DNA from: a virus
Taxonomy: Duplodnaviria > Heunggongvirae > Uroviricota > Caudoviricetes
Length of the DNA stretch: 64,000 nucleotides
Strand: one strand, 5' to 3'
Virus record (IMG/VR): IMGVR_UViG_2703718822_000010
Positions 12,001-18,000 of the stretch are shown here, piece by piece. How positions within the stretch are numbered: position 1 is the stretch's first letter; every line of letters begins with the position of its first letter. The position numbers are program-made.

Positions 12001-15000
12001 ATCACGCAGCTATGAGCACACTCCTCGGCGAGCGGGTGATGGACCGTATGACCATGAACGGTGGTCGTTGGGTGAATTTTAACTGGGAGAGCTGGCGATC
12101 AAACGTTGGGCGTCAGGGTATGTGAGAATTTTTGACGAGGTAAATTTTCGATGGAAACCGTATTGCATGCACTGAAAGCGATGGGAAAAGCCAATTCTGT
12201 TGAACTGGCGGCGCGGCTTGATATCAGCCGTGAAGAAGTTCTCAACGAACTGTGGGAACTCAAAAAAAATGGCGTTGTTGATAAAACGGGTCACACCTGG
12301 TTTCTGGCTGTCGAAGGTGAATCCGGGGTAACCGAAGGGCAGGCACTACAACCTGAAGCGCCGGATGTGGTAACCGAAGAGGTCGCTCCAAAAGTTAGCG
12401 CTGACATGATGATTGAGTTTATCGCTCAGGAGGGGGCTAAAACCTGTGAAGAAATAGCGGGTAAGTTCGGCGTTACCACTCGTAAGGTTGCTTCCACGTT
12501 GGCGGTAGTAACAGCAACGGGGCGCCTGGTGCGCGTGTCTATCAAGGGAAAATTCCGTTATAAAGTGCCTGGCGTTGAAAACGGCGATTTGAGCGCGTCA
12601 TCATCGCAGGATGAGAAATCACACCACGAAGCAGAAAACAGCGCGTCAGGCGGCGAACTGAATCGTTCTCCGTTGATGTCAGAGGGCACGGCAAAGGCCT
12701 GTACAGATGAGTTTATCCAGGATGTTCCGTCGTTCACCGAAAAATATGCTGGTGCAGTGCCCCTTCCACCTCTACGGGCCGCCAGTCGTGAACTTCGTCG
12801 CGCCAAAAAACAGGTCCAGAAGTGGGAGCGTGTCTGTGCTGCACTACGTGAGCTGAATAAACACCGGGAAATTGTCATGCAGATTACCGATTCATCCAGC
12901 AGTATTGCATCGGAAAAGTGATAACTGGAGAGCTTATGGCAAAAGTATTTACACCCGAAGAGCGGGAAAAAATTAAGGAGCAGATCGTTGAATTTGTGCG
13001 CCAGAGTGGACGTGAGACGTTACGGGCTCTGGAAGCTAAAACTGGTGCATCAAGGTATTACATAAACACTCTCGCCAGAGAACTGGTCGCAAGTGGTGAT
13101 GTTTACAATTCAGGTTACGGATTATTCCCGTCTGAGCAGGCGCGTAAGGACTGGCAAAATGCCCGCAAAAAACTCTCGAGAGCAAAGGCAAAGAAACCGG
13201 TTGTCGTTGATCCCGGTCTTATCCGGGCATTACCCGATGGGGAAATACGGCGCTACGACAGACGCTACAACACAATTTGTCGCGAGTGCCGTAACAGTGA
13301 AGCAATGCAGCGTGTGCTGGCATTCTATAGACGTTGCGCACAGGCAAATAACAGTCTGCATAGCCGTGTATTGGCTTAACAGGAGCTAAACATGCATTTG
13401 AATAAAGAGCATCAATCCATGATGGGCAAGCGCCAGACAGAAGAGGCTGTTCGCGATCTGGAAAAACTACTTGGCTATCGTGAAACAAAACTGCTTTTCC
13501 TGGTTCCGGTTATTCGCCAGAAGGTTGAGGAAATTCTTGAAGAAAATGGCATCCCGAAAGAATACATGACGGATGCCATGGAATATTCACTCGAACTGGT
13601 ACGAATTACTCCTGATCTGACCTGGCTTGATGAGTATCAACAACAATTTGAGAAAGGCGCAGAAACGTTACTTTCTGCTGCTGATAAAACAGAGCAGAAA
13701 ACAGAACCATCGGTATTCTGGAATACCGTTGAGGCTATTGCCAGGAGCAAGATATTTGAGTTTAACAACATCAATCATTCCGGGAGAGACACTCATCAAT
13801 CATCACATCTTGAGGGGGTGTCCATGCTTCTAGCTCTGTTGCGAGAGCAAGGCGAATGTCCTCAGTCGACATTGAACGACACTGAGCAATAGTCCATCCG
13901 TATTTTCCGGCAAGATAAAGATATATTGCGTCAAAGCCATAAATAGTCCTTGGATACCCCTCTTTAATAGCCAGAGAGTCCCCGAAGCATTCAAGAAAGT
14001 AATTTGAGCGGGCTGTTTCGTAATGAAAATTCCAGCGAGCCTGATTGAGTTTTTTGTCCATTTATCCTCCATTGTTGCTCTGTTTTGAAAAATGGAGACC
14101 TTCACGCTGCAACGTGAGGTCGTGCGCCGGACACGGGTAAACATCCGGTATTCAAAATTTAATGTTAACGAATTTTTAATATTGAGGTTATGACGTGAAC
14201 AACAAAATCAATATTCCTCTCGAAATTAAAGAAATTAACGAAATCATTGAGGTTACTGATCGCCCCGAGTTTACCCTCATGCACCGTTATGAAACGGGAA
14301 CCGACGAGCAAAAATACATCATGGTTGCAGCATTGGCTGTGATGGCGATAGAAAGGGAGCGGAGGGAAAAGGACGTAATGGTTATTCCGGCGAGAAATGA
14401 TTCACCGGATTTGAGATGGCAGGAGCCGGAGTGGGATGTGGCAATCCGGTGATTGATATTTCTCTGGGGTAAAGCGCCGCCAGAATGACGGCGCGGTGAA
14501 TTTTACGCAGCTTTACCCAGCGTAAAATCAAAGTGGATGTCGTCATACGGAAAAGATGTTCCATTTTCTCCTTTTTCCAGGAGGCCGTTGCTAATCAGTG
14601 CGGTTACATCCGTGTGTACGGCTTTTACGTCACGCCCGACCAGAGCGGCAATCTCACGGATTGACAGTTCTCCGGCACCAGTCATCGCCATGAGTATGTC
14701 CATGCGCTTAGGGGTAAGCACTTTATGCATCATTTGCCAGTCTGGGAATGAAACGATGCTTTCGTTCTTTGACGTCATTCCTTCGGCAACCGCTTTAAAG
14801 GCAGACAACACATCTGCCGTGAAAGCATCCATTGATTCAATACGTATTGTAACTGTTTTCATATCAGGCACCTCTGCGAATGGATTCTACATCATGGAGG
14901 AAGTCAGCAATGAGTTGCTCGATGGAAACAAAGTGGGTACTGATTTCCTGAGCACCAATGTGTTTGTGGTCGCCTTTACCTCTTTCGTTGTCGTAGCGCA

Positions 15001-18000
15001 TGACGCAAACACCATCAACAACGTAAGCCATGCTGTATTTGAAGTTATGGCGGCTACCAAGAACGGCTGGAGCCACCTCCCAGATTTTAATCCTTATGTA
15101 TTCGGATTCCCCAAGATGGCGAATGAACTCTTTATACAGTCTGGATGGCATAAAAACTCCGTGTATTTATGTTGTTAAGGATAACAACAGTGCATAGCGT
15201 TGTCAATTAATACAACATCAATGCTGAGTTGACGACAACACTTATCCGGGATTATATTCTTCGCACGGTCGAGTTGGCCGTCGGGATTGGAACCCCGGAT
15301 AGAGACCGCGACAAACACACGCCGCGAGCGTGTTTTTTATTGTCGTATGCACGCGCACATCTGAATTATGGTGGGGCGCATGGGGGAGCTGAAAAGCTCG
15401 CCGGTCGGTTTCCCGGTAGTTCCAACCCTGTGCGTCTCACCACCCGATGATTGGAACCTTACGGTGGTGATAGTTTAGAAACCACTAGAGGGCGTCATTA
15501 TGACAACTCAAATCTCTGTTGAAACCATCTCCCCGATTACCCATAACCAGATTCCTGTTATTACCACCGAGCTTTTGGCACAACTTTATGGCACCGAAAC
15601 TAATAACATCAAAGTGAACTATACACGCAATGCCGAGCGTTTTGTTTGTGGGAAACACTACTTCAAATTGGAAGGGGCTGGATTGCGGGAATTTAAGAAC
15701 AAGGTTACTCAAAGTAACTTAGTTGCACCGCGTACAAAGCACCTCATCCTCTGGACAGAACGCGGGGCAGCCCGTCACGCAAAAATGCTCGAAACTGATC
15801 AGGCATGGGAAGTGTTCGAAAAACTGGAAGACTGCTATTTCAGCCAGGGAAAAACAACACAAACCGAACAGCAGCCGCAGATTCAGCCACAATTCACAGC
15901 CGAGGAAATCATCCTCCTTTGCTACATGCAGCTCTGGATGGAAAAAGCCCAGAACATCAGCAAACACCTGTATCCCATTATGAAAGAGCTGAACTCCTCA
16001 TACACGAACAAGCTGTATGACATTGCATTTGAGACCATCTACATGGTGACGAAGAACAGAGATGCGTTACTGAGGGAGGCTGCACGGCTTGACCAGTCAA
16101 GTTTTGTAGTCAAACGGGCCATACCAATGCTGAAAAGCCTGCGGGCAAGACAATTCGAGTTTTAAGGCCAGATTTGACAAATCCGCATTAGCGGGGATAT
16201 ATTCCGCTCCATGGTGCTGAACACACCTTCGAAAGCGGAAACCGCGCCCGTCAGTCATGCGGATTTTTTATGTCCATTTTTCAGATATGGTCGGGTAGCG
16301 CGTATACCGAAAAACAGCCGCAAGGCTAAGGATGCGGGCCGAACTTTCGACGGTGTTCAAGTACCCGACCGCCCTGCTGAACACGGGGTGATCTGAACGA
16401 ATCGAAAGGACATAAAACTATGAGCACTCAACTTGTATTCCACAATGTTCAATTCCAGACCGTTCAACGAGATGGTCTACTGTGGTTGTCTGCCCCCCAA
16501 ATAGCCAGCGCGTTACAATATGCAGATCAAAGCTCGGTAACACGCATCTATGCCCGTCACGCAGATGAATTCACAAACGGTATGACAGCCTCGGTCAAAT
16601 TGACCGATCCTAAAGGGGACAAGCAAGAGACTCGCATCTTCTCATTACGCGGCGCTCACCTAATAGCGATGTTTGCTCGAACTCCAATAGCAAAAGAGTT
16701 TCGTCGCTGGGTATTGGATATTCTGGACCGTGAAGCTGAAAAAAGCGCTATACCGCCACAACCTCATATTCAGCCGCAATTCACAGCCGAGGAAATCATC
16801 CTCCTTTGCTACATGCAGCTCTGGATGGAAAAAGCCCAGGACATCAGCAAACACCTGTACCCTATAATGAAAGAGCTGAACTCCTCATACACGAACAAGC
16901 TGTATGACATTGCGTTTGAGACCATCTACATGGTGACGAAGAACAGAGACGCGCTACTGAGGGAGGTAACACGTCTCGACATGTCAAGTTCCGTTATCCA
17001 GCGGGCCATGCCAATGCTGAAAAGCCTGCGGGCAAGACAATTCGAGTTTTAAGGCCAGATTTGACAAATCCGCATTAACGGGGATATATTCCGCACCAAG
17101 GTGCTGAACACACCTATACAAGCGGAAGCCGCACCCGTCAGTCATGCGGATTTTTTATGTCCATTTTTCAGATATGGTCGGGTAGCGCGTATACCGAAAA
17201 ACAGCCGCAAGGCTAAGGATACGGGCCGTTCTTGTATGCGGTGTTCAAGTACCCGACCGCCCTGCTGAACACAGGGATTCTGAACAAAAAATACAAGGAC
17301 ATAAAACTATGAGCACTCAACTCGTATTCAAATCCCACGTTCTTGAAACGATCGAACACGACGGCAAACAGTGGTTCACTGCCGCGACTTTGGCTTCTGC
17401 ACTGGAGTATTCGCGCGGCGATAAAATCACCCAGATATACAACCGCAATTCGGATGAGTTTACTCCTTGTATGTCAATCAACCTCAAAATGAGGTTCAAC
17501 GGGATCAACAATAGCTTACGAGAGAAAGATGTGCGTATTTTCTCTCTACGCGGTGCCCACCTGGTAGCGATGTTCGCAACAACTCCAGTAGCCAAAGAGT
17601 TCCGTCGCTGGGTATTGGATATTCTGGACCGTGAAGCTGAAAAAAGCGCTATACCGCTACAACCTCATATTCAGCCGCAATTCACAGCAGAAGACATCAT
17701 CCTACTCTGCTACGTTCAACTCTGGATGGAAAAAGCACAACAACTCAGTAAGCAGCTATACCCCGTCATGAGAGAACTGAACTCTGATTACTACGGGAAA
17801 CTGTTTGATCTGGCCTACGAGACTCGTCATATAACCAACCGGACTCGCGACACATTGCTCCGCGAAGCAGCAAAACTTGATCCCGCCAACTATATGGTGC
17901 ATAGGGCCAGAAGCATGCTGGCGCAACTACGGGCAAGACAATTTGAATTCTGAAACTAAAGGAGCTTCGGCTCCTTTTTTGTTGGGAAAATCCAATGAGA

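Follow-up and report, generated by a model that had tools for sequence, protein, structure and literature searches.

A probable TumE-TumA-type toxin-antitoxin module in a variable slot of an Stx1c-type lambdoid prophage

Results

A coupled gene pair reads against the pR operon

The subject of this analysis is a cassette of two small minus-strand genes, hereafter tumE and tumA after the TumE-TumA toxin-antitoxin (TA) superfamily to which we relate them, in a 64,000-nucleotide stretch of Caudoviricetes DNA (IMG/VR record IMGVR_UViG_2703718822_000010); the whole of this stretch is referred to below as the window. Its close sibling is Escherichia phage phiSTEC1589-Stx1c (PQ600364), of the genus Diegovirus; identity between the two exceeds 99% across most of the compared region, and the window differs from that phage in having a different immunity segment and one additional antirepressor paralogue. 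A first inspection of the sequence had described the two genes as tightly coupled, each equipped with its own ribosome-binding site, and embedded antisense within the plus-strand replication-to-nin operon, and all of this was borne out: both predicted open reading frames (ORFs) are present, they are translationally coupled with the single base 14863 between the tumE stop codon and the tumA start codon, and a Shine-Dalgarno sequence precedes each start (Table 1). The antisense placement is correct because, in PQ600364, the pair is flanked by a series of plus-strand genes, with O, DnaC-like, YdaW, and DUF977 on one side and antirepressor, ninB, and onward to Q on the other. ORF listing also gives an alternative GTG start for tumA at 14871 that would yield a protein of 122 amino acids (aa); ATG 14862 is the likely start, since homologues begin with MKTVTI.

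Table 1. Features of the cassette and of its immediate surroundings (window coordinates unless a locus handle is given)
Feature	Coordinates	Strand	Details
Exchangeable 730-bp module (promoter, operators, two genes)	14498..15227	minus	Megablast flank boundaries
tumE-like toxin gene	14864..15151	minus	ATG 15151-15149, stop TGA 14866-14864, 95 aa
tumA-like partner gene, winged helix-turn-helix, HVO_A0114 family	14503..14862	minus	ATG 14862-14860, stop TAA 14505-14503, 119 aa
tumE Shine-Dalgarno GGAG	15157..15160	minus	5 nt before ATG, direct sequence reading
tumA Shine-Dalgarno GAGG	14871..14874	minus	Within the end of tumE, 8 nt before ATG, direct sequence reading
Predicted sigma-70-like promoter	15178..15206	minus	-35 TTGACA 15206-15201, 17-nt spacer, TG-extended -10 TATCCT 15183-15178; consensus match 10/12
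Distal operator-like palindrome O1	15198..15217		TGTTGTATTAATTGACAACG on the minus strand; contains -35 box
Proximal operator-like palindrome O2	15170..15189		TGTTGTTA-N4-TAACAACA, perfect 8+4+8; covers -10 box, 28 bp from O1
Terminator-like hairpin	14474..14494	minus	GCGCCGUCA-UUC-UGGCGGCGC then UUU (14473-14471); 8 nt past tumA stop
isrK-like RNA	15265-15338	plus	Rfam 54.9 bits, above gathering score
C4 antisense RNA	15364-15447	plus	Rfam 71 bits, above gathering score
Slot equivalents of window 14498-15227	L003 3208-3769; L159 2708-3236; L004 1971-2948; L160 2710-3393	minus	Minus-strand cassettes

Since the two genes run opposite to every neighbouring gene and are overlapped by a 213-aa plus-strand ORF (14537-15178), they could be read as chance, non-coding frames antisense to the pR operon. 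Both proteins, however, have Pfam and PHROG matches, with 160 database homologues for the 95-aa protein and 329 for the 119-aa protein, and their pairing is kept in >150 loci. Compared with a 78%-nucleotide-identical variant of the cassette from a different Escherichia coli prophage, the ratio of nonsynonymous to synonymous substitution rates (dN/dS) was 0.074 for tumE and 0.069 for tumA, which shows that both are under purifying selection. The overlapping plus-strand ORF matches no family, and we rejected it as a gene, considering it a shadow ORF. The family matches, the homologues, the dN/dS values, and the conserved pairing thus rule out the non-coding reading, which we regard as virtually inconceivable.

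The upstream gene encodes a TumE family protein

Profile searches, which the original prediction had proposed as a check, placed both proteins in families. The 95-aa protein matches the Pfam family TumE (PF20126, formerly DUF6516) with an E-value of 2.1e-14 and a score of 53.7 bits against a gathering cut-off of 23.4; the match spans profile positions 6-81 of 81, and PF20126 was present in 120 of 120 homologues among the matches listed. It also matches phrog_16135 (E 5e-59), and PHROGs lists the families of both proteins with function unknown. None of the NCBIfam models matched TumE. RefSeq names exactly these genes "toxin-antitoxin system TumE family protein" and "HVO_A0114 family putative DNA-binding protein", and both are "hypothetical" in the GenBank phage record PQ600364.

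The segment RYDNERGKGDHKHIG of the 95-aa protein, singled out from the sequence as conserved-looking, proved to be a family signature. Across 39 homologues of down to 38% identity, the invariant positions are H35, K38, Y39, D54, N55, E56, G58, K59, G60, D61, H62, H64, L80, and F84, and because of this invariance we take YDNERGKGDHKH as the signature of this TumE branch. The AlphaFold2 (AF2) model of TumE has a predicted local distance difference test (pLDDT) score of 94.8 and is built of six antiparallel strands with a helix at the C-terminus, the YDNERGKGDHKH motif forming the hairpin made by strand 4, a turn, and strand 5. Judging from the register of this hairpin, D54, E56, H62, and H64 would lie on the same side, as might be expected of residues that bind a metal or take part in catalysis. 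The protein is not RelE/HigB-like in either sequence or fold.

Longer TumE relatives of 125-146 aa were considered as a separate subclass and rejected, as their extra N-termini are mutually unrelated and resemble over-called starts.

The downstream gene encodes an HVO_A0114 family winged-helix protein

The 119-aa protein belongs to the Pfam family HVO_A0114 (PF25212; E 1.2e-24, 86.3 bits versus a cut-off of 27.6). Its further matches to ArsR/MarR/Csa3-type winged helix-turn-helix (wHTH) families are weak and all fall below family cut-offs; NCBIfam returned sub-threshold ArsR/Csa3 matches only, and in PADLOC-DB 2.0 the matches were confined to the wHTH portion of Csa3/CasR/CARF models (E ~1e-6). 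In the AF2 model the wHTH (residues 42-112) is confidently predicted and the N-terminal third is poorly ordered, and the top folds in the PDB are ArsR/MarR/CadC-type regulators. The fold originally proposed for this protein, that of a wHTH DNA binder, is therefore upheld by the PF25212 match and the confident AF2 wHTH. The poorly ordered N-terminal third is, by analogy, probably the toxin-binding part.

The C-terminal two thirds of TumA share their fold with ArsR/SmtB and MarR regulators, for which a dimer on a promoter-overlapping palindrome would be the expected mode of binding. TumA nevertheless differs from these regulators in that its matches to them are below cut-offs, it has no evident metal or ligand site, it carries an extra N-terminal strand-helix segment, and it is always encoded beside TumE. 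Many older NCBI records (among P0271-P0334) name TumA homologues "glycosyl transferase family 1", a name that neither the sequence nor the model supports.

The toxin-first pairing is conserved across genomes, plasmids, and viral contigs

When each species was represented by a single genome, scanning revealed at least 585 stretches that encode relatives of the cassette, and we counted pairing and junctions in 80 of these loci from different species together with 74 IMG/VR viral contigs. A TumE gene is followed by a same-strand HVO_A0114 gene in 79 of the 80 genome loci and in 73 of the 74 contigs, the sole exception in each set being cut by a contig end; toxin-first order with HVO_A0114 second was thus observed in 152 of 154 loci overall. 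The PF25212 wHTH partners in related loci are 112-122 aa long. Junctions are mostly of the -4 overlap (29 genome loci) or +1 (17 genome loci) type, and the +1 junction of the window's pair is accordingly one of the two typical of the family.

In addition to the 74 viral contigs, TumE relatives were found on 74 plasmids, mostly rhizobial and acetobacterial, and most relatives are chromosomal or plasmid-borne. Plasmids are a typical habitat of TA modules. The cassette itself is present in 18 of 5,426 complete E. coli genomes, nine at >=99.9% identity and nine at 78%, and in 1 of 50,697 phage records as searched by tblastn with TumE and by megablast.

The 78% variant, as found in E. coli O121 (NZ_CP119441, L002 4614-5369), lies in a different prophage type, with a LexA-like repressor, Rha, and an ash-family protein.

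Paired palindromes overlie the predicted cassette promoter and co-vary with the recognition helix

Upstream of tumE, the -35 and -10 boxes of a predicted sigma-70-like promoter are overlaid by two palindromes that share the 20-bp pattern TGTTG-N10-CAACA (Table 1). In the 78% variant, the operator half-sites are kept and the spacers between them have diverged. Among 81 loci from other species, 55 have GTTG-N10-CAAC in the 130 nt that precede TumE, compared with 1 of 710 same-locus control segments and 11 of 8,100 shuffles. Two sites were found in 34 genome loci, 25 of which have them exactly 28 bp apart, as in the window, and this spacing also holds in 16 of the 20 two-site loci on viral contigs.

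We also compared the predicted recognition helix of the wHTH with the operator type in 134 non-redundant loci, which are phylogenetically related, so that the counts are not independent. Among the 91 loci with an RD[VI] helix, 74 have GTTG-N10-CAAC, none has GATG-N10-CATC, and 17 have neither; all 19 loci with an RDF helix have GATG-N10-CATC, with none having GTTG-N10-CAAC or neither motif; and the 24 loci with other helices have GTTG-N10-CAAC in no case, GATG-N10-CATC in three, and neither in 21. There was no crossover between the RD[VI]/GTTG and RDF/GATG groups. Because the half-sites are conserved, the motif is enriched upstream of TumE, the 28-bp spacing recurs, and the motif co-varies with the recognition helix, we interpret the palindromes as operators; the in-silico case for binding by the HVO_A0114 protein, and thereby for repression of its own operon, is a good one. 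Type II antitoxins usually repress their own operon.

The operator motif occurs in the 64-kb window only at the cassette promoter, the only other candidates being three one-mismatch matches, which is chance level. We therefore rejected control of other phage genes in the window by the wHTH protein. By the original prediction, profile hits marking both proteins as ordinary transcription regulators of other phage functions would have told against the cassette reading; this was not the outcome, since the predicted operator lies, within the window, solely at the cassette's own promoter.

Downstream of tumA, a terminator-like hairpin has a predicted RNA folding energy of -18.3 kcal/mol (z -3.15) and is conserved in the O121 variant cassette. 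It was missed by a consensus terminator scan because its U-tract is weak. Since it lies inside the left flank that is shared with phages carrying other cassettes, it may be a common, weak terminator.

The cassette occupies a variable slot beside an isrK/C4-antirepressor module

A megablast search of the 50,697 phage records showed that the flanks of the cassette (14300-14497 and 15228-15400) are common to many Shiga toxin (Stx) phages and that the interior is found in a single record. In POCJ13 and PhiR5_2, the same slot carries, on the same strand, a Gp49/HigB-like (PF05973) toxin gene with an HTH_3 antitoxin gene. PA2-type phages have ParD-like and HigA-like genes in this slot, with no confirmed toxin, and PhiR12_3 carries an HTH_3 antitoxin-like gene beside a neighbour whose RelE-like match is weak and sub-threshold, again with no confirmed toxin. 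The slot therefore carries TA-like genes in 4 of 4 phages checked, with a clear toxin in two, which gives positional support to a TA reading of the window's pair, and it gives the impression of a site at which TA-type cassettes are exchanged.

The HigB/HigA-like pairs that fill this slot in POCJ13 and PhiR5_2 resemble the window's pair in having the toxin gene first and an HTH antitoxin gene second. They differ from it in that there is no kinship in sequence or fold, and the putative antitoxin of the window's cassette has an ArsR/MarR-type winged HTH, whereas HigA has a Cro/C1-type HTH.

The slot sits between a conserved small ORF and an isrK/C4-antirepressor module. The right edge of the exchangeable module abuts the promoter of the isrK-like RNA, and the RNA unit is transcribed away from the cassette. 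Together, the isrK-like and C4 RNAs and a weak match to the a1/b1 target make 15252-15447 (+) a P1-like c4/ant immunity-control unit, which precedes the antirepressor gene 15500-16165. A 73-aa ORF (15229-15450) overlaps this unit and has no family match.

Beyond the RNA unit, 15500-17953 (+) encodes a tandem of three antirepressor paralogues, all of which end in a P22_AR_C domain, whereas their N-terminal domains are ORF6N, Bro-N, and Bro-N, respectively; PQ600364 has only two paralogues. Matches to sRNA-Xcc1 at 16289-16378 and 17176-17266 precede the second and third paralogues (67.5 and 68.6 bits versus a gathering score of 53). On the other side of the cassette, downstream of its hairpin, a 96-aa minus-strand ORF (13771-14061) is unannotated in PQ600364, has no Pfam or PHROG match, and overlaps the plus-strand gene 13392-13892 at the latter's 3' end. 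Further away, window positions 6916-9745 could not be aligned with the N/cI region of phiSTEC1589-Stx1c even though the flanks are >99% identical, from which it follows that the immunity module of the window differs from that of its closest sequenced relative.

In the 78% variant, weak similarity extends upstream of the promoter (TCCGGGGT.C.AATCCCG), into the counterpart of the window's isrK-like stretch, and the cassette may tend to adjoin an RNA-controlled immunity unit of this kind.

The pair shares family and organization, though not layout, with validated TumE-TumA pairs

The TumE-TumA superfamily was defined in 2023 by Durairaj et al. in Nature (PMC10584680). Six gammaproteobacterial DUF6516 proteins arrested E. 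coli growth and were neutralized by the products of neighbouring genes; TumE from Allochromatium tepidum, the only one for which this is reported, lowered 35S-Met incorporation, and RNase activity was proposed without demonstration (PMC10584680). In clusters 1, 2, 4, and 6, DUF6516 is mostly encoded downstream of its partner, and one cluster-1 partner is RelB-like (PMC10584680). A literature search on TumE, DUF6516, and HVO_A0114 returned only this founding paper, its preprint, and incidental mentions.

The window's pair resembles these systems in several respects: its toxin belongs to the same Pfam family above the gathering score, it is bicistronic, its small partner is a predicted DNA binder, and RefSeq applies the TumE name to these genes; a toxin fold without a solved relative may be a further likeness. 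By family membership, we infer that the first protein is toxic and that the second neutralizes it. Taken together with the operators and the slot, these likenesses lead us to consider it probable that the pair works as an autorepressed type II TA module belonging to the TumE-TumA superfamily, which an Stx1c-type lambdoid prophage carries as a moron.

Several observations weigh on the other side. The six validated pairs all belong to subcluster 1a and not to the toxin-first branch of 95-aa and 119-aa wHTH proteins; in cluster 1 the partner is mostly upstream, whereas here, as in 152 related loci, the toxin gene is upstream and the PF25212 wHTH gene second. Validated toxins are ~116-137 aa and validated antitoxins ~76-109 aa long by our own estimate (synthetic-gene lengths minus primer overheads), compared with 95 and 119 aa here. 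The TumE model has six strands and one helix versus the seven strands and two helices described for the family, TumE matches no defence family in PADLOC-DB 2.0, and the promoter and terminator are predictions from consensus or fold. The cassette nonetheless departs from the predominant cluster-1 layout and not from the TumE-TumA superfamily.

These differences bear on whether the pair might instead be a non-toxic two-protein regulator, in which the wHTH protein represses its own and perhaps other promoters, with a co-repressor or sensor role, rather than growth inhibition, for the TumE-like protein. Such an arrangement would fit a partner that is a conventional ArsR/MarR-like wHTH, the DeepFRI predictions that list DNA binding too for TumE proteins (PMC10584680), and the fact that the toxicity record belongs to another TumE subclass whose validated members are longer than 95 aa. 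It fits poorly with an operator confined to the cassette's own promoter, which leaves no other phage target visible in 64 kb, with the near full-length TumE match, with an invariant D/E/H/K-rich motif that suggests an active site over a passive co-repressor, and with a slot shared with pairs that include HigB-like toxins. We therefore regard a purely regulatory, non-toxic pair as quite improbable.

Discussion

A model for a toxin-first TumE module

We envisage that the first gene would produce a short TumE toxin, expected by family membership to halt growth through a block in translation; a nuclease chemistry for it would be a proposal only. The second, translationally coupled gene would produce the HVO_A0114 winged-HTH antitoxin, whose poorly ordered N-terminal third probably holds the toxin and whose C-terminal wHTH would bind the two 20-bp palindromes over the -35 and -10 boxes, giving self-repression of the operon. 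Because its direction is opposite to that of the pR operon, we would expect the cassette's own promoter to drive its expression in the lysogen, while pR is shut off. The likely benefit, judging from other prophage TA modules, would be prophage retention and/or harm to cells in which the antitoxin supply fails, for example upon infection by a competitor. Like toxicity and neutralization, DNA binding by the partner, lysogenic expression, and the biological role of the cassette are what we infer; the genes, their family membership, their conserved pairing and order, the purifying selection, the operator motif with its helix co-variation, and the boundaries of the module are what the analysis shows.

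A TA module in this position could plausibly serve to retain the prophage or to tune its induction, or else to abort infections by competitors. The original prediction had named a TA or small abortive-infection module: the TA part is supported by PF20126, PF25212, and the RefSeq names, while the abortive-infection part received no direct support, TumE being without a PADLOC match.

If the module served primarily in anti-phage abortive infection, an invader would lower the antitoxin or trigger TumE, and translation arrest would kill the lysogen before the invader replicates. Many prophage TA modules act by abortive infection, and this general precedent, which is background only, is joined by the accessory nature of the module, its own promoter, its variable prophage slot, and the occurrence of relatives on viral contigs. 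On the other hand, the PADLOC results give no match for TumE and only the wHTH domain of Csa3/CasR-type proteins for its partner, the papers found contained no link of TumE to phage defence, and the cassette is in a single phage record with most of its relatives chromosomal or plasmid-borne. Abortive infection as the primary role thus appears rather doubtful to us.

The module could alternatively act mainly in prophage stabilization or induction tuning through addiction, with prophage loss or antisense read-through from pR ending the antitoxin supply and freeing the toxin. The convergence of the cassette with pR transcription, an autorepressed promoter layout typical of addiction modules, and the frequency of relatives on large plasmids are consistent with this role, as are the stable lysogens that the phage forms in K-12 strains (PMC12029490; the paper describing the phage makes no mention of the cassette). 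However, the instability of the antitoxin is presumed, sibling phages do without the cassette or carry different ones, and release of the toxin in the phage's own lytic cycle would be costly to the phage. We put addiction forward tentatively, as a possible main role of the TumE-TumA-type module that we favour.

Implications for TumE modules and Stx prophages

The TumE-TumA family and the RefSeq names of these genes were already known. To this we add some modest points, namely that toxin-first pairing with HVO_A0114 is strict, that a dual operator co-varies with the recognition helix, where exactly the module begins and ends, and that its slot, by the isrK/C4-antirepressor region, holds TA-like cassettes in other Stx phages. 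Together these features raise the possibility, which we advance with reservation, that toxin-first TumE with HVO_A0114 forms a distinct TumE branch with its own regulatory logic, in which the promoter lies within dual operators, an RDV-GTTG/RDF-GATG code links helix and operator, and the module occupies a hot-swappable Stx-phage slot back-to-back with the isrK/C4 RNAs, which control the antirepressor. If so, the one-residue helix code would prevent cross-talk between paralogous modules, and the module could affect the maintenance or induction of Shiga-toxin prophages or exclude rival phages.

The cassette leaves the general view of TA systems unchanged. It does mend an annotation gap, the genes having been "hypothetical" in PQ600364, of unknown function in PHROGs, and "glycosyl transferase family 1" in many older records, and it supplies an operator and a specificity rule, both open to testing, for a TA family first described in 2023. 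It also defines a slot in Stx phages in which TA-like cassettes are swapped, and if these cassettes affect prophage stability or induction, the slot may have a bearing on Shiga-toxin production.

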